From Spizellomyces punctatus DAOM BR117 (Eukaryota): a stretch of 64,000 nucleotides of DNA. Below are positions 4,735-45,669 of the stretch, piece by piece. Every line of letters begins with the position of its first letter. Position 1 is the stretch's first letter. The stretch lies in assembly GCA_000182565.2 (NCBI GenBank), contig KQ257454.1; one strand, 5' to 3'. Below the pieces are notes generated by a model. It searched no databases and was not told where the DNA came from. It saw only the letters and a program-made list of their open reading frames with translations. The position numbers and the translations under genes were made by a program.

Positions 4735-4859
4735 AAAGAGAGAGAGAGAGAGAGTATTGAATGTATATAATCACTCTCTCTGTGTGTGTGTATATAAGAG
4801 AATAAGAGAATAAAAAGTGTAAGAATTTGTGTGAGGAAAGTGTGATCAAGTGAAATGGA

Positions 4860-4897
<38 letters not shown>

Positions 4898-5087
4898 TAA
4901 AAAGTGCGAGCGTGAACAGAGTCTCTCTCTCTCTCTCTCTCTCTCTTGTCTTGAATCAACTAGCGTTTGTGTGTGTGTGTTTTATATATTCTCTCTTCTC
5001 TCTCTCTCGTTTGTATTCAATCAATTAGTGTGTTTATGAGAGAGAGAATTCCTTTATATCATTATTCTCTCTCTCTCTCTCTCTACT

Positions 5088-8893: not shown

Positions 8894-10467
8894 ATGAACA
8901 GGCAAGTCCACCCATTGTGCATCCCACTACACAAGTCGCATTCTAACATTACTACAGTTTCTTTGCCGGTCGCCCGCTCTTGCGATCGTCTCGCCTGACA
9001 CTCCTCCCAACCCGCACCACAACAAACATTCTCGCAATGGCCTCTTCACGTGCATACTCGACAACCCCTTCCAAAATCGTTGTCCAAAACCCCATTGTCG
9101 AACTCGACGGCGACGAAATGACGCGCATCATTTGGAAGTGGATTAAAGACAAGCTCATCTTTCCATACCTGTCTCTTCCAATCAAGTACTATGACCTTGG
9201 TGTTGAGTACCGGGACAAGACGAACGATCAAGTCACGATTGAAGCTGCTGAAGCGATCAAAAAGTATCATGTTGGTATAAAGTGTGCGACGATTACGCCT
9301 GATGAAGCTCGGGTGCAAGAGTTTGGGTTGAAGCAAATGTGGAAGAGTCCTAATGGGACCATTAGGAATATTTTGGGGGGAACGGTGTTTAGGGAACCCA
9401 TCTTGTTGAAGAATGTGCCGAGGTTGGTCCCTGGATGGAAACATCCGATTATTATTGGACGTCATGCGTTTGGTGATCAGGTATGTTTTTTTTTTTCTCA
9501 CTCTTTTTCATGTCCCTCGACTTTTTTTCCGTGGTTTCGTTGACATGCACTCTAAACACGTTCGTTTTACAGTACAGGGCCACCGACTTTATTGCCGACG
9601 AGCCCGGAACATTTGAAATGACCTTCCGCCCCAAATCCGGCGGTCCACCCAAAACCTTTACCGTCTACGAATTCCAAGGCCGCGGCGTCGGAATGGGCAT
9701 GTACAATACCGACGAATCCATTTACGGATTCGCCCAGAGTTGCTTTGAAATGGCGCTTGCCCGTAAAATGCCTCTGTACCTCTCGACCAAAAACACCATT
9801 TTGAAAAAATACGATGGACGATTCAAGGATATTTTCCAACAAGTCTACGAAAAAGACTATGAATCGTCCTTTAAGGCCGCTGGTATCTGGTACGAACACC
9901 GCCTCATTGACGATATGGTCGCGCAAGCCCTCAAATCCCCCGGAAACTTCATCTGGGCCTGCAAAAACTATGATGGGGACGTTCAATCCGATACCCTTGC
10001 CCAAGGCTTTGGATCCCTCGGTCTCATGACATCAGTCCTCTTGACGCCCGATGGCAAGACAATGGAATCCGAAGCGGCTCATGGAACTGTTACGCGTCAT
10101 TATCGGGAACACCAAAAGGGCAAGGAAACGAGTACGAATTCCATTGCGAGTATCTTTGCTTGGTCAAGGGGATTAGCTCATCGTGCGAAATTGGATGGGA
10201 ATGATCGGTTGAAGGCTTTTTGTGCCGAGTTGGAAAAAGCTTGTGTCGAGACGGTTGAAAAGGATAATATCATGACCAAGGATTTGGCCTTGTCGATTCA
10301 TGGACAGGGGTAAGTCAACCTTGATGTCAGTGGTACATTTCGTACATTTGCTCATGGTTTGTTTTTGGTATAGTTTGAAACGTGAGCACTATGTCACCTC
10401 GGAGGAATTCATTGACCACGTTGCCAAGCGCCTTGCAGGAGCCCTTCAATCGCAAGCTAAATTGTAA
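8894..10467 (+). CDS. IDP1: NADP-dependent isocitrate dehydrogenase with N-terminal mitochondrial-like leader and C-terminal PTS1 (AKL)
   Basis: [58 protein letters not shown]; last exon ends ..LQSQAKL*. Confidence 0.97.
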
Positions 10468-10608: not shown

Positions 10609-11847
10609 TTATAAATTCACTAATCCATCTGTTATGGACCGTTTCCCATCCATAAGAGTCTTTAGTGGTGTTTTTGGAGTCTGACCTCGTTGTCGTGGTG
10701 TTCCAGTTTTTCCAATCCACGGCGACGAACCTCTAGGTGACGCATATGAAGCACGTAACTGCGAATCCCCACTTTTTTTACTCTTGCTTAACAAGTGTCT
10801 TGCTGCTGGTGATAATAATTCTGAACGGGTAGGTTCCCTCAAAGGTGTTTTAGGCTGTCCAAAAAAATCCGGTCGTTTGCCCTTGTTTGCTTTTTCCGCC
10901 AATTTCTTTCCAATAATTTCTCGTCGTGGTGTTGGAGGCATTGAAAAGCCTTTTCCATCCATTAAGAGGGGTGTGCCTTCTACTGTTCCCCACGTTAACA
11001 ATGCCGATGGATCAATCGTATCGTTCAGGACGGGTGTCGAGGGTACGAAACTGTATCCATTCACGTTTGGACTGTTTTGGGGGAGTAGGCCTGGTGTTGC
11101 TTTTGCTAAATCCCGCCACACGTCCTGAGTTTTCTGTCGTTCCATTGTTGTAGTGTCACTTGTATTTGTATTGGATGGGAATCGGGTACTATCATGTGAA
11201 ATCGCTTTTGGTTCTCCTCGTCCAGTCTCGATCGCCGTGGACCCATCCACGGATGGATAATACATGAGGGAATTCTTTGCAGCGTATTTCCACTGTTGGA
11301 TTCTTTTGGCTTCTTTTTCGTTATCGGGTGTCGTACCCAATTGAAGAACTCGTGTCTCTTTATCGTAGATCCAACTGTATTTTTTGCGTTTATCGTCGTT
11401 GATGCGGGTTATCATGTTATTAAACGATGCATTGTCTTCGCTTGTGTACCGCGACTGAAATGCGTCCAATGACATGTTGGTATTCACCGGTATCGTATCC
11501 TTTTCCGCTGTATCCGTTATGGACGTTTGAATGTCACCGCGATCCACCTGGTTTAATTCATCGCCTAATACCCTAACAACCCCATATTCCCCATTCTGAA
11601 CGGCATCCAACAACTCATTCTGGAGTTTTATTCGTTTTAAATGTGGAAAGAAATCTCTTTGGATTATTTTTGAGAGGGATTCGACGTATGTATCTTCTTC
11701 GAGGACGTCTGGTGTGCGTTTTTGGGATTGTGTTGGAGTTGGGGTTGATTGTTGGATTAGAGATGTGGATTGGGTGGGTAATGTTTGGATTGTGGAGGGG
11801 GGAGATGTTGTGGGTGGTTGTGTTGACGAGGACATTGACGAAGACAT
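10609..11847 (-). CDS. ESS2: Splicing factor ESS2/DGCR14 (nuclear protein Es2)
   Basis: LEEDTYVESLSKIIQRDFFP; SLDAFQSRYTSEDNASF; W.YAAKNSLMYYP; TWGTVEGTPLL; LSPAARHLL; LRASY. Confidence 0.92.
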   Translation of the reverse strand: MSSSMSSSTQPPTTSPPSTIQTLPTQSTSLIQQSTPTPTQSQKRTPDVLEEDTYVESLSKIIQRDFFPHLKRIKLQNELLDAVQNGEYGVVRVLGDELNQVDRGDIQTSITDTAEKDTIPVNTNMSLDAFQSRYTSEDNASFNNMITRINDDKRKKYSWIYDKETRVLQLGTTPDNEKEAKRIQQWKYAAKNSLMYYPSVDGSTAIETGRGEPKAISHDSTRFPSNTNTSDTTTMERQKTQDVWRDLAKATPGLLPQNSPNVNGYSFVPSTPVLNDTIDPSALLTWGTVEGTPLLMDGKGFSMPPTPRREIIGKKLAEKANKGKRPDFFGQPKTPLREPTRSELLSPAARHLLSKSKKSGDSQLRASYASPRGSSPWIGKTGTPRQRGQTPKTPLKTLMDGKRSITDGLVNL

Positions 11848-13025
11848 TTGGTCAGTGTAGATTTGGACTGAATGGAATAAACAAGCTTTGCTGCACAAAG
11901 TACGCAGTCAGGAGCTCACATCCTACACGTGACAATATTCTGTCAGCACAGGTTAATGTGAATCGAATCACTCCCCCCGGTGTGGCGCGGGCTGTCTCGT
12001 TATTATATAAACGCGCGCTTTTCACGTATGTTTTTTCCCACCCATCTTGACGCGAAAGAATTCATATCGAGTCCTACTTTGAAAGGAATCGACCGCTGGA
12101 TTGGCACTTGGGTCCTTTTGGAGTATTAGCGGGCCTCTGAACATGCTCTTTTGCTTGTTTCTTTCCCTGTCAATGGTTGCATTGTGACGCGAAACAACAC
12201 CTACCAAGACGGGATGTGAAAGTTCCCACACATGTAGATTTTCCAAAGAGTCATATTTGGTGAGTGTTTGTGTCATATTTGGCTGGAAAGCAAGGTATCT
12301 AAATAGTCACACTTGTAGGTTGCAAAGCATCACCACGAGATGTCAAATTCCCACGCACGCATTTTCAATACAGGATCATTGGTACCCTAGGAGTAACGTC
12401 AGTATGTTTGCAATGAAATCCTTTGCTGCGTGTCAGTGGTAGGTGGTGAAGGCTGTTCGTGTCCGTACCGGGCCGCTCATTCCTGCGGCGCACGCTGCTC
12501 GGACCAGCCACTCCAGGACCACTGGGATCACAAGAGTTCCCCTGCGAATAGGTTGTAATCCTGGTGCAATGCTGCCTCGGTTGCAACCGACTGCCCACAG
12601 GAGGTCGGAGGATCCTGACATTTGTCTCGGTCCTGGGAACTCTTCCAGTGCACGTCCTTCACCATTATAAACTTGCCATTCATTACGCCGTATCTGCAAT
12701 ACCATATTAAGTGTTGGATACCCATGCCCCGTTGGTATTCTGGATGCGCCGGTCTGGCAGTTTCACCACTGGCACGCTGTGGAACAGTATCACTCACGTT
12801 TTTTCATTCCGATTATTTTAGATAACCCCGCCGCGGCGGCAAAGGCATGCTGTGAAGTTGAAATAACGTAGACACCGGTAGCCGCCGGGGAACAGGAAAG
12901 CGAATACAATGCGCAGCCGTCAGGTCATAAACGGATTGATGACGGGGACGCACAGAACGGCCACTGGCTCTCGCACTGCTAGTTTAAAAATCATTTACGC
13001 ATCGCCTGAAGCAAACTTTACTGTG

Positions 13026-13662
13026 GTGAGTCTACTGAAATGCACACCTAAAAATATGACGAGTCTATCCAGTGATTAGGAGCCTCTTCCGATGTGGGTG
13101 GTCTCACAGATGGGGTGGAGCTGGCCATTTCCGCGCCAGATGTTGTTGTCGCAACAACGTGTACGCTCCAGCAGGTTACTGCGAGGAGTGGGGTGACTTG
13201 CTTTGACCTCCCAAGGCAAGTCATCCCACTCCTTGAGCCGAGCACTGTGCGAGAAATCGCGGGGATTAAGGAAGTCATCCTACACGTGGTGGATTCGTTG
13301 AGATGATGGATGGATGGTACATCCATAGCCGGGAAACCCCTTTGGATGCCGATCCACCAAACCATACAACTAGTATCGACTATTTCATCGGACAGATAAT
13401 GGGAACACAGCAGAAACACTTGTCCGATGAAATAGTCGATACTAGTTGTACAAAGGCCTGACCCGGTTGCGGTTTCGACCTAGCTTGGAGGTCTAGCATA
13501 AACCTCGGCCAGAGTTTGGTGACCCTATACCTGTCGGTGCAGGCGGTATGTAACTCCAAAGCGTTAGTCCTAGTCATGCCAAACTGCTTACTCTATAGGC
13601 TGTCAACCCGTTGTCTCATGAGGAAGTTGAGGGAAGGCGGGCGGCTATTAAACATGTTCTCA
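13026..13662 (+). pseudogene. Decayed copy of an unknown intron-containing gene family (second copy at 44633-45182 on the opposite strand)
   Basis: Aligns by eye with the reverse complement of 44633-45182; shared splice signals; mostly synonymous or conservative differences in frame ASSDVGGL..GVTCFDLP.QVIPLL; stops and indels present. Confidence 0.65.
13367..13448. mobile_element. 82-bp MITE with perfect 28-bp TIRs and TA target-site duplication (Tc1/mariner-type)
   Basis: TA|CAACTAGTATCGACTATTTCATCGGACA-26 nt-TGTCCGATGAAATAGTCGATACTAGTTG|TA; absent from the paralogous copy near 44850. Confidence 0.85.
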
Positions 13663-14469
13663 CACGTATATGTATGAGCGTATGTGTGAGAACATGTTCC
13701 ATAATCGCCCACTGTCCTTGACAAGATTGAGGGTGATTTTGGCTGTCATTCGAACGTGACTGGCTGGATGCTCGCCTCATTTCTTTTACTCTTAATTTAG
13801 TTACCACTGCAATTTTGACGAGCTCTACGTCCTGGTGTACGTCGGGTGTGAAGCGAATACAGTAATCGCAACTGGGTATTGCGGAACTCTGTTGAATGCT
13901 ACCCGATGCTTCTCGTCGACTGATCTGGTCAAATGAGTCAGGCATTATCGCTTGTCGGTTGTACCCGCACGACCTGTTGGCGATGTTCCTGACCAAATCA
14001 GCTACTGTTGAAACAATGGTAGCGAGTCTTCTCTTCTCCCGACGACCCATGATGTAGGTAAGGTCTGTCATTTAAGCTGTCCAGCAGCATTTTGATTGCC
14101 CATGATGCCTGCAGCCGCATACAGCATGTTCTGTATTGGTCGCACAAAGATGGACACTATCTTATTTTGAAAGATGGCGTATTTTTTGTGGAGGAACCAT
14201 GATTATATTTGCTGTAAGACGTACTGAGGAGATACAACGTCCTCGACGGACGCTTTACTTTATCGTGGAACTGGATTAGCTTGCCCAATAGCCCGAGTGG
14301 GAAAGCCGGGGCACCAAATGCAGGTTCAACATTGTATATGCAAGAAAATAAGAGGTTGACAGACAATTACACACTGTTGCACAGTCAAACCATCTTTTAC
14401 AGTATCCGTATTAGTGCACCCCAATAAATACCTCCCAAAATTCTTGTCAAAGCATGCAGTAAACCATTA

Positions 14470-14935
14470 ACTAGGGTGGAGATGTACCGGGTCCAGCACA
14501 ACCGACTCCAGACAACTTACTTTATAAGATTGGATATTGCAATGGGTAAGATGTGGACACTTGTCTGGGGTATTCCCATGTCGCTTTTCCAACAAGCTAG
14601 ACATGACAGCACCAAAACCCGGCGTACACACACTTCGGTGCTGTACATTGCGCGATCAATGCCGCTTCCAACAGGGATGGAAAAAGGTTGTGCAACGTGG
14701 GCAAAGCAGTCGCATCCTTCAAATCGACCCAAAATATACTGATACGAAACAAAAATATTCGTCCTCCCTACGGCGGCCCATCTCACAAAGGAGACTAGTG
14801 TCATGAAAACTATGGCATCAGAATACAGCGCTTAGAAATAGAATTACCGCTTTGCGTACTCGTGATTCAGTGGTCCACTTGGTCATGTAGTCCGACCGCA
14901 GAGCGACTCTAGTCTCGGTCCGGGCGGTCGGGGTC
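14470..14935 (+). repeat. Dispersed degenerate repeat, copy 1 (copy 2 at ~53905-54375), probably a decayed coding sequence
   Basis: Shared blocks gcatccttcaaatcga, gtgtcatgaaaactatgg.atcagaatacagcgct, taccgctttgc.tac, gcagagcga..ctcggtc.gggcggtcgg. Confidence 0.8.
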
Positions 14936-15819
14936 CTCGGGTGTAAGGGCCCCCCCCAAAGGGTTTCGGTCCCTTCGGCTTTTTGGGATTGTTTGTACTC
15001 GCATCCTTGATTTGGGTGTCATGGTTGAATCGTTAATACAGGGGAGGGGAACACGGACAACCGCCCCCCCCCCCCCCCCCCTTTTTATAAAGATTGGGGA
15101 TGTCAGTTGTTCGGGACAAAACGGGTTCTAGCAGCTGTTGAGTCAATTTCAATTATATCTATTTGGATAGTTTGTGGCCTGCCATCTCCTTCATATGCAC
15201 TTTCCGAAAGCCGGTTGCATTCATTGGTCATAAAGCATAGCAGGAACTTGACAGCTCGCCATAGGTAAGCATGCAACCACAATAGACAATTGAACGGTTA
15301 AAGTTGTTTAGTGTAAAAGGGTGGGCATGTCAAGTCTCTGCCAAATTCAAATCAGAGCAGCTTGACGTGAGTGTATGCTTGCGGTTAGGGCGTGGATCCC
15401 CACATGAGGGGCTTTTGGTGCTCGAGTTGATTGATACAGTCCGAGTGATGGTTGCAGTGGACAATCAGACATGCTAAAATACTTGTCATCAAGAGCTCGG
15501 TGAAAAGGTAAACAGGTTGGGAGTCGTATGACAAGTCTTATACCATGGCTTCTAGGACATTCAGCTCTAACGATGCTCTAGGCCATCTTTGGAAAGTCCA
15601 AAACGCGATGATTATCAAAGCATGAGTGATTACATGATCAGAGACACACAGAGACACCGCTGCGTGGCAGCCAATCAGCTTGCTGGAGAAAGAGTAGATT
15701 ATCTAATCCATAAACACGAATATAAAAGACGCCTCCCCCATCTCCCCCCCGCCTCTTGCTCAGCTCTGATTTTTCTCTTGATTTTTGGAGCGATATCTTT
15801 TTTTGCTATTTTTTTCACC

Positions 15820-17331
15820 ATGCCAAACTCCGTTAAGTCTAACGCGTCCTCGTAAGCATTCTTAAACATTTCGCGCTCAATTTTGCTTTGTTCTGATGTT
15901 TTATCTGTTCTGTTTTCACAGCAAGAATGGCCGTAACTACAGGCTTAAGCTTGTAAGCAATGACATTGTTGTGGACCGTCAGTCCTTCAACCGCTTGCTC
16001 AAGGAGCGCCGTCCCCGGGATCTCGTGATCCCGCCCCCCTCTCCAGCTGTACAGGCACTGGTAGAGCGTCTCTTGGCACGACGCCAAGTGTTGAAACGTG
16101 GCGCCTGTCTTGACGTAAGTACTATTGTACTTACAAAGACCGCTTTCATGGATCTGCGCCTGACAGCTTTTGGAATTGATCCATCTAGCTTGAACAGGAA
16201 ATGCCAGCGTATTTTGGCGACAACCCTGTTGTCCCGAAAGAAGTCAGCGATACCCTGTTTGATGTTTATGCTGACACCGACAAGTTTGAGGGTACGTTAA
16301 TAGCTTCATTGGAGAATGAGCGACAGGGATACTGATCTTTGGCGGCTACAGCGCAGCATGAGGTGGAATGGGCTCGGGTAAAAGTGCCCCTTCTCTCCAT
16401 GTTGAACCCGGGGGAGGTCTTTAACCATGCCTCGTAAGTAGTCGTACATTCTAGTTCAAGCAATGAGTCGCTTCCGTTATTGATGCATCGTACACTACTA
16501 CAGCGAGAGCCATCTGCTTGTCCTACCCCCAGGCACTGCTGAAGGACTGGCCCGGCCGAAACCCGACCTTTTACTCGGGTTCTATCGGCTGGGTCGCGCC
16601 AGTTACCGCCGGAACGCGTACACACTGGTGACCAGCAATGTTCTGCCCATTCGAGCCCAGTGTGGTGATGCCGATGGCCCCCACTTCCCCTTTTTTGTTC
16701 AAGAACGAAGAGCGGATAGAGGGACGGCGCTCGAGTGTCTGAACCAGCTGCTTGGCGGTCTCAGGACTGCCATGTATGCCTGGGAAATGGTACTCGAGCG
16801 GCAGAACATTGCCATCGTGGGTATGACGTTGGTGGGGTTCTACTTCAGCCTGTACGTGATGGGTTATGGCGAATGTGACGGCGAGGGCATGGTAAGAATT
16901 GTGTTCGCGTACTCCACTCGTACGCCACTAACATCCAACCGTTTTTGTAGTACGTAGCCTATCACATCACAGACTACTCTATCCTTGTGGATAGAGACTT
17001 GCCTCGTCTCATGTCTCTTATGGTTGCCGTGAAAGAGGAAGGGTTACGGCTCTTCAACTTTCTGTTGACCATCAAGTGGCAAGACTTGCAAGGTAGTCTG
17101 GATGATGGCGACAATGTGCCCGACCCCGATCCTGAGGGCGATGAGGAGGATGACGAGCGCGACAACGACCGGGCGGGGTTGTCCGAGCCCCGGCACAAGA
17201 AGCGTCGGCTTCGCCGTGCCGGAGCGAAGGATCCGGTCGTCGATAGCATCGCCAAGGTTCAAAGTTGGCTTCCTTTGGTAGTCCGACCGGAAGGCCCAGG
17301 CGCTGCTCCTGGAGCGGAGGATCTTGAGTGA
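15820..17331 (+). CDS. Six-exon 392-aa protein with PD-(D/E)xK/REase-like fold, acidic tract and NLS
   Basis: Exons 15820-15851, 15922-16114, 16189-16291, 16352-16433, 16504-16891, 16951-17331; all introns GT-AG, phases consistent, 1179 nt with no internal stop; motifs RPKPDLLLGF..HFPFFVQERRADRG..ECLNQLLGG; NLS PRHKKRRLRR; TATAAAA at 15721. Confidence 0.75.
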
Positions 17332-17399
17332 TGCCTCCCTTCGGGTCGTGATCGTTGGAGCCACCCGACTTTCCGTCCTCGAGGTAAGTCATTCCCGAA

Positions 17400-17810
17400 G
17401 AGGACGTGGTAGAAACTACACAGCGCAGTGGCCTAGCGGCTGGGCGAATCTGTGGGGCCACGCTGAGTCTGTGGGGCCACGCTGAGGGAAGTCGATATCC
17501 ATCGCGCGATACGGTAGCAAGTTCACAGCGCAGTGGCCTAGCGGCTGGGCGAATCTGTGGCGCCGTATTCCCGCCCAAAGGACGTGGTAGAAACTACACA
17601 GCGCGGTGGCCTAGCGGCTGGGCGAATCTGTGGGGCCACGTCGAGGGGTTCGATGCTCAATCGTGCAATATGGTAGCAAGTTCACAGCGCAGTGGCCTAG
17701 CGGCTGGGCGAATCTGTGGGGCCACGTCGAGGGGTTCGATGCTCAATCGTGCAATATGGTAGCAAGTTCACAGCGCAGTGGCCTAGCGGCTGGGCGAATC
17801 TGTGGCGCCA
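17400..17810 (+). repeat. Array of five 37-bp cores with two alternating linker types
   Basis: CACAGCGCAGTGGCCTAGCGGCTGGGCGAATCTGTGG at 17419, 17524, 17597 (one A>G), 17683 and 17769. Confidence 0.95.
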
Positions 17811-18121
17811 TGCTTTGTACGCATTTGGGTTAGTCGTTTTTGGGCTTCCAAAAGCGACTCTCGGGAGCACTTCGGCCGTTTAGAGGTCTAAACGGTGGGG
17901 GTGTAATGCAGCTGTACCCGTCCCAAGCCGGGGGCTCGTTTCTTTACGAAATGGGAATGCAGAGGGCACCTTTAAGTGTGGTCAATAACCCAAAACTGGC
18001 GGATTATATGTCAAATAGGCAGTCGTTGTAAAAGTGACGACACTTCAATCCAATCTAACTGGCACCTCCATCGTTACATTGCACCTATACAATAAAAAAT
18101 CTGTCTCTAATCTAATCACCC

Positions 18122-19789
<1,668 letters not shown>

Positions 19790-25188: not shown

Positions 25189-26721
25189 ATGCGGAAAACT
25201 ACGCTTTCAACGCTTGCCCCACCGTCGAGCGTACCCCGCGATGCACCACTTCTAGTTTACTTATGCCATGGACGAGGATACGTATGGGACGTTGACAGTG
25301 AGTGTACTAACTTTCTGAATTCGAACTATCTAGAGAATTTGCTCAAGTCGAAGAACTTTCACAGCCGCACTGGCGTTGCGTACCCGCTATCATATCGTAG
25401 GAGCGCTGGTGGGGACTCTACCTCGGCTTCCGATGCAGAATACCTTCTTTTCCCTTCCCCTAGTGCTGCTGAGCGAAGAGATCACCGTTCTACTGGAAAG
25501 AGGTGGGCTGAGAGTACTGTCGGCCTAATGACGCAACATGGTTTTCTCATGTAGAATTGCAATGTCTGCTAGGGCTCATTCGTATAGTTGACGATTCTCG
25601 AGGGCACCTTATACCGCTAACAGAAGAGATTGAGCAATGGGCCGCGAAACGAGAAGCTGACAGCATAGAGTACGCGAATGCCAAGAAGCTGGCTGCCGAA
25701 AAAACCCAAAAAGCCATGAAAGCTGCATATGCAACCTCGCCGAGACAAAAGAGGAAAAAAGGACGCGGGATGCAGGAAGATGTTGAATCGGTGGCGGGCG
25801 TTGTCGAAAATCCCACTGCGGTATCAGATGAAGATACGTTGGACGGATCGGGATTTACCAGTACGACCGATGGTGAGGCGCATACTATCCCCTCATTGGA
25901 CGCTCTGCAACACTTGTTCACCCCAAAATCGACGGACGCTAAGACAATAGCAGAGCCGAGCAGCTCGGACCATCACCGTGATCAACTCAAAGTTTCTATT
26001 GAGCCAACAGACACTGCCAACTCTAATCCTCTAACTCCAATAACGGACTTATGTCGGTCACTGGAAAAGCTGGACTTGCAACCTACGATAGAGGACGATA
26101 GGTCAAGAAGTGTTTCGGGATCAGAAGGGCGATCTGATGATGGGGATCGAACTTCCGATGTCCGACACGATGAACCCTTGCATGTTGATCGGATTGTCCC
26201 ACCGGAACCAACAAAACCCGCCACACCGCCTTTGCCACCACTTCCTATATCTACACCCACTTCGTCCGCTACCCTGCCCTGGTTTGCCAGGTCCAACCCT
26301 GAGCGATCGAGTCTAGATTTTGCTCAAGCCCGTCTAACTGGCCTGTGGCAGTATCCGTCAACAGCAGAGGAGAGGCTACGATATAAAGTATTCTGCGCTC
26401 TCTGGGAAAAAGGATACTTTATAACAACTGGCAGCAAGTTTGGAGGCGATTACTTGATGTACCCAGGTAAGAATGGATATATGCTTACACCCGAAAAGGG
26501 ACAGGTTCTTAAGACTCGATCTGCTTCTAGGTGATCCTCTACGATTCCATTCTCACTACGTCACATCTATTGTGCCTATTGATAAATTGTTTTCTCCGCT
26601 TGATGCTGTAATGTTTGGGCGGTTGGGTACAACGGTGAAGAAGTCGCATGCAGTGTGCTCGTGGGATGACGAGAAAGATGAGTTGGTTTGCGTATGTATA
26701 CAGTGGACTGGGTGGAATTAG
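25189..26721 (+). CDS. SEN34: tRNA-splicing endonuclease subunit Sen34
   Basis: HIVGALVGTLPRLPMQN..LPLVLLSEE; LWEKGYFITTGSKFGGDYLMYP|GDPLRFHSHY; GRLGTTVKKS. Confidence 0.92.
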
Positions 26722-45584: not shown

Positions 45585-45669
45585 TCCCAGATAGTATAAT
45601 GGTTAGTATCTCCCCCTGTCAAACCTTGATAGTTCGGGGAAGATCGGGGTTCGATTCCCCGTCTGGGAG
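45585..45669 (+). tRNA. tRNA-Asp(GTC) with 13-nt intron (45622-45634)
   Basis: TCCCAGA acceptor stem pairs with TCTGGGA; D arm TAGTATAATGGTTAGTA; anticodon stem TCCCC/GGGGA with loop CT-GTC-A|C; T loop GGTTCGATTCC; T-run terminator at ~45690. Confidence 0.95.

Follow-up and report, generated by a model that had tools for sequence, protein, structure and literature searches.

A conserved, structured 3' untranslated region with a predicted twister ribozyme follows a nuclease-like gene of chytrid fungi

What is a tandem repeat array doing directly behind an intact protein-coding gene? This question is raised by a 64-kb stretch of DNA from the chytrid Spizellomyces punctatus DAOM BR117 (contig KQ257454.1 of assembly GCA_000182565.2), hereafter called the window, in whose coordinates all positions are given. 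On the + strand of the window, the gene SPPG_03553 (coding region 15820–17331) is followed by near-identical short repeats and then by two hairpins. A first-pass annotation, made from the sequence letters and their open reading frames (ORFs), had described these components and proposed that they form a new system of nuclease and structured RNA. We found that the locus is more than a minisatellite. SPPG_03553 belongs to a lineage-restricted family of nuclease-like genes with a conserved, structured 3' untranslated region (UTR), and this region ends in a type-P1 twister ribozyme. The twister was overlooked in the first-pass annotation and is the best explanation of the terminal structure. We give about an even chance to the reading in which the 3' UTR is a conserved RNA module of ~650 nt whose twister separates the coding and array RNA from the poly(A) tail.

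A cmscan search placed the type-P1 twister (Rfam RF03160) at 17900–17970 on the + strand, directly 3' of the second hairpin. The match scored 37.4 bits and covered all 68 of the 68 model positions. Its E-value was 2e-6 when 801 nt were searched, 1.5e-5 for 6 kb and 1.6e-4 for the entire 64-kb window, searched with 4227 families. Helices P1 (GGUG at 17900–17903 with CACC at 17967–17970, 4 bp), P2 (UGCA at 17907–17910 with UGCA at 17958–17961, 4 bp) and P4 (CCC at 17917–17919 with GGG at 17930–17932, 3 bp) occur in type-P1 order and contain standard pairs throughout. P4 encloses the 10-nt loop GUCCCAAGCC; this loop and the segments UAA, GC and GAGGG are all identical to the twister-P1 consensus. 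A 20-nt insert folds as a 6-bp P5 hairpin (17937–17953), located where this optional helix usually occurs. Unlike the type-P1 model, the element has 4 nt instead of P3, and its junction reads GGGAA against a consensus of gUAAA, with two of the three A kept. It also differs in its setting, since it closes a conserved module in the 3' UTR of a chytrid protein-coding gene. Forms without P3 and forms with P5 are regular variants of the class, according to the extract of a twister survey used here (PMC11662667).

The first AATAAA 3' of the stop codon lies at 18091–18096 (+ strand), downstream of the ribozyme, and there is no AATAAA or ATTAAA between the stop codon and 18091. The cut of the twister would fall between U17904 and A17905, which we take to be the cleavage site of the class; this predicted cut is downstream of the stop codon but upstream of the poly(A) signal. 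Two pseudoknots are also possible in what we take to be the fold of the class, pairing CCC at 17922–17924 with GGG at 17964–17966 and GC at 17927–17928 with GC at 17911–17912. By eye, the string GGCUGGGCGAAU recalls the hepatitis delta virus (HDV) ribozyme; an HDV-like fold was rejected, as the string has no upstream P1 partner. A full-text search returned no paper linking twister ribozymes with Spizellomyces, and no title among the papers listed for S. punctatus and ribozymes concerned a nuclear twister, while the supplementary candidate lists of PMC11662667 could include the species.

RNA reads revealed a discontinuity at this element. From the raw reads of RNA run X22, 718 of 26,394,413 records were placed on the stretch, and 716 of these were first mates. 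Since the spliced reads of the + strand gene fall on the + strand, the first mates of X22 report the sense strand. The + strand depth was 0–3.9 over the gene and 1.7–7.0 over the array. It then rose from 2.0 at 17806–17886 to 204 at 17887–17967, followed by 102 at 17968–18048 and 40 at 18049–18100. At single positions, depth was 11 at 17915 and 334–356 at 17939–17946, with read starts at 17914 (23 reads), 17920 (58), 17922 (24) and 17927 (51). RNA with a 5' boundary inside the ribozyme is thus ~50–100 times more abundant than the RNA upstream of it. This step is not a 3'-tag artefact, because X22 also covers the 5' exons, including five joints across intron 1. It is compatible with self-cleavage, after which the 5' product would be lost or left out of a poly(A)-based library. 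Another run, X12, assembled only 17942–18098 of the 2.4-kb stretch examined. Runs X6–X11, with small shares in metatranscriptomes, form no part of this evidence. The abundant + strand RNA that begins in the twister extends, in antisense orientation, into the 3' end of the gene for adenylosuccinate synthetase (18122–19443, − strand), and at 18049–18100 depth in X22 was ~40 on both strands.

We propose the following sequence of events. SPPG_03553 would encode a nuclear protein with a PD-(D/E)xK-like domain of the PDDEXK_12/DUF7924-like kind, and its transcript would continue past the stop codon through a GC-rich structured module of ~650 nt (17332–17982), composed of five tandem stem-loops of ~62 nt, two very stable hairpins and the terminal type-P1 twister. 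By cutting itself at 17904/17905, upstream of the poly(A) signal at 18091, the twister would part the coding-plus-array RNA from the tail that bears the poly(A). The 5' product would end in a 2',3'-cyclic phosphate 8 nt past the second hairpin, and the 3' fragment would begin with the compact ribozyme fold and accumulate. The likely outcome would be constitutive post-transcriptional control with little polyadenylated mRNA, as with the Clec2 3'-UTR hammerhead. Cleavage may also release a non-polyadenylated RNA that bears the array.

Conservation of the 3' region could be assessed from a second, diverged copy in the same organism, which comprises the last repeat unit, the hairpins and the 5' part of the twister (X1 record 7, equivalent to 17784–17945). 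This copy carries 15 substitutions in total. None lies in the 30 nt of the unit-5 core that it covers, and only one, in the loop standing in for P3, lies in the 46 nt of twister covered. The 86 nt that separate core and twister hold the remaining 14 substitutions and also 13 gap letters. Core and twister have therefore changed far less than the spacer that separates them, a contrast that speaks for selection. In hairpin 1, 17848 C>T and 17854 G>A retain their pairs, while in hairpin 2 the change 17881 T>G is compensated by 17890 A>C (U-A to G-C). The change 17882 A>T would disrupt a pair beside an enlarged loop, and 17899 G>A would convert a G-U pair at the base of P1 to A-U. Homology to the other copy stops at 17982, as seen from the loose ends of one X1 contig and seven X22 reads, and GC content drops at this boundary from 58.8% to 38.1%. 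The conserved module ends with the 12 nt at 17971–17982 (+ strand), beyond which the other copy diverges. Since homology ends 12 nt past the ribozyme, the twister is the last element of the module.

The array that precedes the twister was much as it had been described in the first-pass annotation, which had reported five near-identical 37-bp cores about 90 bp past the stop. Five copies of the 37-nt core, defined as alignment columns 20–56, lie at 17419–17455, 17524–17560, 17597–17633, 17683–17719 and 17769–17805, the first beginning 88 nt past the stop codon, and only one position varies among them. A 30-nt part of the core has five matches, compared with none in all 100 shuffles. Each core forms the apical part of a unit that can potentially fold as a 62-nt irregular hairpin. 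In this fold, the closing stem of 7 bp is followed by a second helix, also of 7 bp but with a single bulge, then by a helix of 3 bp and finally by an apical stem of 5 bp that carries a UAGC loop. Of the alignment cells at its 22 pairs, 95.5% pair, compared with 33–43% when the partners are slid. Folding z-scores of the units ranged from 0.0 to −3.0.

Alignment and folding divided the units, all on the + strand, into two types. Units 1 (17403–17464) and 3 (17581–17642) are of A type. The closing stem is a perfect 7 bp in unit 3 (z −3.0) and has 5 bp in unit 1, where its seven positions include one mismatch and one G-U. Units 2 (17508–17569) and 5 (17753–17814) are of B type, in which three of the seven closing-stem pairs, plus pair 17/57, are changed on both sides relative to the A type. 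Unit 4 (17667–17728) has a B-type 5' side and an A-type 3' side, and is thus a recombinant with closing-stem mismatches. These double changes are suggestive of covariation in the closing stems, in an alignment of five sequences. With its invariant 37-nt apex and apparently covarying closing stem, the unit is a candidate new RNA motif. It matched no known RNA family in Rfam at E up to 10 over 17300–18100, where two small nucleolar RNA rows were at chance level (E 4.9 and 6), and neither ARAGORN nor the Rfam tRNA model found a tRNA in the array.

The linkers between the units are repetitive as well, with identical copies after units 3 and 4. The last three units follow one another with an 86-nt period, units 3 and 4, linker included, share 95% identity over 86 nt, and a 19-nt duplication at 17449–17486 follows unit 1. 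As there are no unique spacers between the repeats, the array does not resemble a guide-RNA array or one of clustered regularly interspaced short palindromic repeats (CRISPR). The two hairpins that had been noted after the array were also recovered, both on the + strand. Hairpin 1 (17832–17859) has 12 bp and a GCUU loop (z −5.3), and hairpin 2 (17875–17896) has 9 bp and an AGGU loop (z −4.4); in either case, none of 200 shuffles folded equally well. The only T5 run of the 3' region, at 17837–17841, lies inside hairpin 1.

Some contigs contained the units in another order. An RNA-derived X4 contig joins a B unit (up to 17571) via GGT to 17388 onward, and an X1 contig has extra inserts containing GGTAAGT at 17389–17391. 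These contigs point to other unit arrangements in other copies, which match the unit order of S. 'palustris' (see below).

Several observations weigh against a cleaving twister in a conserved module. The X22 read starts lie 10–23 nt downstream of the predicted cut, and none cluster at the cut itself. No site of many molecule starts was present among the places listed for read placement, and the 3' fragment is not represented among the contigs of run X4, which holds the spliced exons. A step in depth would also arise from an independent promoter or a reverse-transcriptase stop. The reads themselves call for caution, as 628 of the 718 X22 reads begin with a prefix of ~10 nt that does not fit. 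Part of the twister reads comes from another copy or copies, as indicated by 11–15% variant letters at 17939, 17942 and 17946, and among the differences listed the variant letters in P5 are not obviously compensatory. The twister score of 37.4 bits falls below the Rfam gathering score of 67.2, because P3 is missing and P5 is counted as an insert, and multiple fungal twister candidates were inactive in vitro, as stated in the consulted part of PMC11662667. For the units, the paired percentage and the covariation score were equalled in 18 to 23 of 500 shuffles and the count of pairs changed on both sides in 120 of 500, and the five sequences represent only two types.

The gene upstream of this module is intact, in agreement with the earlier description of a six-exon gene of 392 aa. 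Its exons (15820–15851, 15922–16114, 16189–16291, 16352–16433, 16504–16891 and 16951–17331) were read by hand from the sequence and its three frames; all introns are GT..AG and the stop codon is at 17329–17331. The spliced translation is exactly P0001, a database protein with the source name 'uncharacterized protein SPPG_03553' from S. punctatus DAOM BR117, and the exon 5 stretch 16505–16891 is 100% identical to it. Splicing was seen in RNA for introns 1–4: five X22 reads span intron 1, and introns 2, 3 and 4 are spliced out in one X4 contig. The joint of intron 5 was absent among the RNA joints listed.

The protein consists of a core domain at about residues 125–310, with an acidic tract and a nuclear localisation signal near the C-terminus. 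The signal, RHKKRRLRR, had been pointed out before, and both it and the acidic tract are conserved. The core domain probably has a PD-(D/E)xK-like fold, judging from ESM Atlas models. The nearest ESM Atlas clusters of residues 125–310 by features were PDDEXK_12 (15 of 30) and DUF7924 (12 of 30). The PDDEXK_12 match had a feature score of 0.95, with 199 of 256 features shared, and the template modelling (TM) scores by query were 0.84 for DUF7924 and 0.75 for PDDEXK_12. The ESM Atlas rows for the whole protein included a bacterial one auto-named 'Type I restriction endonuclease subunit R'. The ESM Atlas model of SPPG_03553 had a predicted TM score of 0.65 and a mean predicted local distance difference test (pLDDT) of 0.58, and AlphaFold2 with four and six sequences reached pLDDT values of 31.6 and 33.2.

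No Pfam family scored above cut-off for the whole SPPG_03553 protein. DUF7924 remained below threshold: its E-value was 0.17 with exon 5 on its own and 0.065 for one of the six family members, at best 11.9 bits against a cut-off of 27. A sequence search of the PDB returned only 8a0k_A (E 1.2), and PADLOC and NCBIfam matched none of three proteins. The restriction-endonuclease-like fold that had been suggested is thus favoured by its ESM Atlas neighbours, while the Pfam evidence stays sub-threshold. The E-x-K motif on which that suggestion had drawn is not there: SPPG_03553 reads Q203-E204-R205-R206. With motif positions (D158, E204 and the lysine position) assigned by eye, the order is KPD158, then FPF-x2-Q-E204-R, then NQ, which is the same motif order as in PDDEXK_12 (PF20516) and DUF7924 (PF25545). 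Unlike these families, SPPG_03553 falls below the Pfam cut-off and has R206 at the lysine position. All four full-length proteins of Spizellomyces share D158, E204 and R205. At the lysine position, P0001 and its S. 'palustris' ortholog P0002 have R206, P0005 and P0006 have K, and P0004 of Phlyctochytrium arcticum has N. The R at the lysine position makes the catalytic competence of SPPG_03553 doubtful.

The family is small and is known only from chytrids of the genera Spizellomyces and Phlyctochytrium. A scan of 1.84 billion representatives yielded four proteins and a profile search six. With an E-value limit of 10, the profile picked out just these six from 8000 candidates scored, so that no more distant relatives were found by it. 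In S. punctatus, P0001 (SPPG_03553, 392 aa) has the paralogs P0005 (SPPG_02614, 406 aa) and P0003 (SPPG_01199, a 117-aa C-terminal fragment). S. 'palustris' has the ortholog P0002 (g05369, 506 aa) and P0006 (g05183, 339 aa), and Ph. arcticum has P0004 (263 aa, on two contigs). A protein-pattern scan of metagenomes gave 284 stretches, none of which was confirmed.

Does the coupling of gene and array, described in the first-pass annotation, recur? The annotated protein tails indicate that it does. In the tail of P0002, 98 of 136 residues lie in exact matches of at least 6 aa to the three-frame translation of 17362–17809, among them two that span 23 aa (69 nt) and 22 aa (66 nt). The S. 'palustris' ortholog is therefore followed by four units (A, B, A, B) or more. 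The array is near letter-perfect between the two species, compared with 61–66% identity of the proteins themselves. The C-termini of P0003 and P0005 read the sequence past the stop in frame, so the start of the 3' UTR (17332–17402, + strand) is common to the paralogs. The P0002 model itself (506 aa) appears to read ~110 codons into the repeat array and crosses the core in two frames; this tail is probably an annotation error. An open frame of 124 codons also crosses the S. punctatus array at 17388–17762. The array was nevertheless rejected as coding sequence, since the same core is read in different frames and the other family members end at or just after the stop position.

Other explanations were considered for the same locus. 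The structured region could be a relic or co-opted retroposon resembling a short interspersed nuclear element (SINE), a tRNA-derived tandem of RNA polymerase III (Pol III) type with a ribozyme, that landed behind the ancestral gene and was copied with it without any functional tie. We consider this unlikely. Two one-mismatch matches to the Pol III A-box per core, one-mismatch B-box matches 40 nt past units 3 and 4 (17647 and 17733), the sole T5 run 23 nt past the last unit and the sharp 3' boundary of the module at 17982 would all fit such an origin. However, the window has 29 one-mismatch A-box matches where 20.8 are expected and 14 one-mismatch B-box matches where 13.3 are expected, and units 1, 2 and 5 have no B-box match. 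The Pol III transcription of the array that had been envisaged is therefore not borne out, as its box matches require one mismatch and occur at chance frequency in the window, and no tRNA-like fold was called.

Also in favour of such an origin, ribozyme-bearing SINE-like tandem repeats are known, and DUF7924 counts among the families of Neurospora crassa that vary most in copy number, each according to an extract of the source (PMC6765202 and PMC13412767, respectively). In schistosomes, the SINE-like tandem repeats consist of short units with tRNA-promoter-like boxes and a self-cleaving ribozyme, as summarised in the available portion of PMC6765202. The schistosome repeats have a hammerhead in each unit and their copies are dispersed and numerous, whereas the S. 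punctatus module has a single twister at its end, promoter boxes at chance level and few copies, which go with one gene family. The window contains no further copy of the gene or the array, and the core pattern had no match in metagenome, viral and prokaryote contigs. The two or three versions seen in the contigs roughly equal the number of family genes, a weak hint given that depth is not copy number. The better conservation of core and twister relative to the spacer between them also speaks against a mere relic.

It is quite improbable that the element is a twister look-alike that does not cleave, with the RNA from ~17914 being a separate transcript (for example an antisense of adenylosuccinate synthetase) and the array a conserved 3' UTR minisatellite. 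Such an explanation would accommodate the sub-threshold score, the offset of 10–23 nt between read starts and predicted cut, and the inactivity in vitro of fungal candidates in one survey (PMC11662667, in extract). The isolated 71-nt fold is also thermodynamically unremarkable (z −0.72). It would leave unexplained the window-wide E-value of 1.6e-4 for a full-length match to every conserved position, and the second copy, which keeps the twister but not the flanking spacer. A cluster of transcription starts exactly within a ribozyme-shaped sequence would also have to be a coincidence.

An RNA-protein module, as proposed in the first-pass annotation, appears decidedly improbable. Here, the units would give rise to small RNAs of ~62 nt, the twister would set the last 3' end, and the RNAs would bind the upstream-encoded protein as cofactors, guides or antidotes. 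The linkage of gene and array in two species, and probably in the paralogs too given their conserved 3' UTR start, is in line with this idea. The same is true of the array core being more conserved than the protein, and of the combination of an invariant apical 37 nt with a covarying closing stem, a pattern of specifically recognised RNA. On the other hand, there are no unique spacers and the linkers are repeated, the units match no known RNA family, and no read pile-ups or ends inside the array were found among those listed. In addition, the motif lysine is R in the SPPG_03553 protein and N in Phlyctochytrium. The boldest version, a heritable gene-array-twister cassette in which the ribozyme and cellular RNases free 62-nt units that aid or restrain the nuclease-like protein, is highly improbable; if true, it would be an undescribed eukaryotic protein-plus-RNA module processed by a ribozyme, possibly a selfish or defensive chytrid element.

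The surroundings of SPPG_03553 did not match the 'otherwise decayed island' in which it had been placed, as its neighbours are ordinary, intact-looking housekeeping genes. Pfam identified an isocitrate/isopropylmalate dehydrogenase ORF (8947–10313, + strand), an Es2 ORF (10609–11907, − strand) and the adenylosuccinate synthetase ORF (18122–19443, − strand), which is convergent with SPPG_03553 and ends near 18122. The only ORF regions without a Pfam match were 12–15.8 kb and 19.8–20.3 kb (none of 10 ORFs). Eight ORFs of 92–157 aa at 12000–15800 had no Pfam match, and these may have given the impression of decay. A run of 18 C at 15064–15081, ~740 nt upstream of the SPPG_03553 start, underlies a chance Rfam match to 'Clostridiales-2'.

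Elsewhere in the window, (GA)n followed by (TC)n at 4850–4960 forms a long hairpin (−57 kcal/mol, z −5.1). Rfam matches to plant microRNAs on both strands of this segment were rejected as spurious products of the microsatellite palindrome. A tRNA-Glu (CTC) of 85 nt, probably with an intron, lies at 45585–45669 and contains the only perfect B-box match of the window (45648). An ORF at 25512–26534 encodes a tRNA-intron endonuclease catalytic domain (E 7.9e-8).

By analogy, the closest working counterpart of the proposed 3' UTR twister would be the discontinuous hammerhead in the 3' UTR of mammalian Clec2 genes. There, a cut between the stop codon and the poly(A) signal removes the signal and lowers expression, as described in the consulted section of PMC6765202. 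The predicted cut at 17904/17905 lies likewise between a stop codon (17331) and an AATAAA (18091). In contrast to the Clec2 hammerhead, the S. punctatus element is contiguous and of the twister class, is preceded by a repeat array and two hairpins, belongs to a small paralogous family, and is known from sequence and RNA depth.

Thousands of eukaryotic twisters have been predicted, with a biological role given as largely unknown (PMC6765202). With SPPG_03553, removal of the poly(A) tail by a natural twister in the 3' UTR becomes a concrete and directly testable hypothesis, in one of the rare natural settings where the role of a eukaryotic twister could be examined. S. punctatus can be grown in the laboratory. 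It can also be transformed. Finally, the SPPG_03553 protein, with its probable PD-(D/E)xK-like core, would extend the fungal PDDEXK_12/DUF7924-like group to chytrids.

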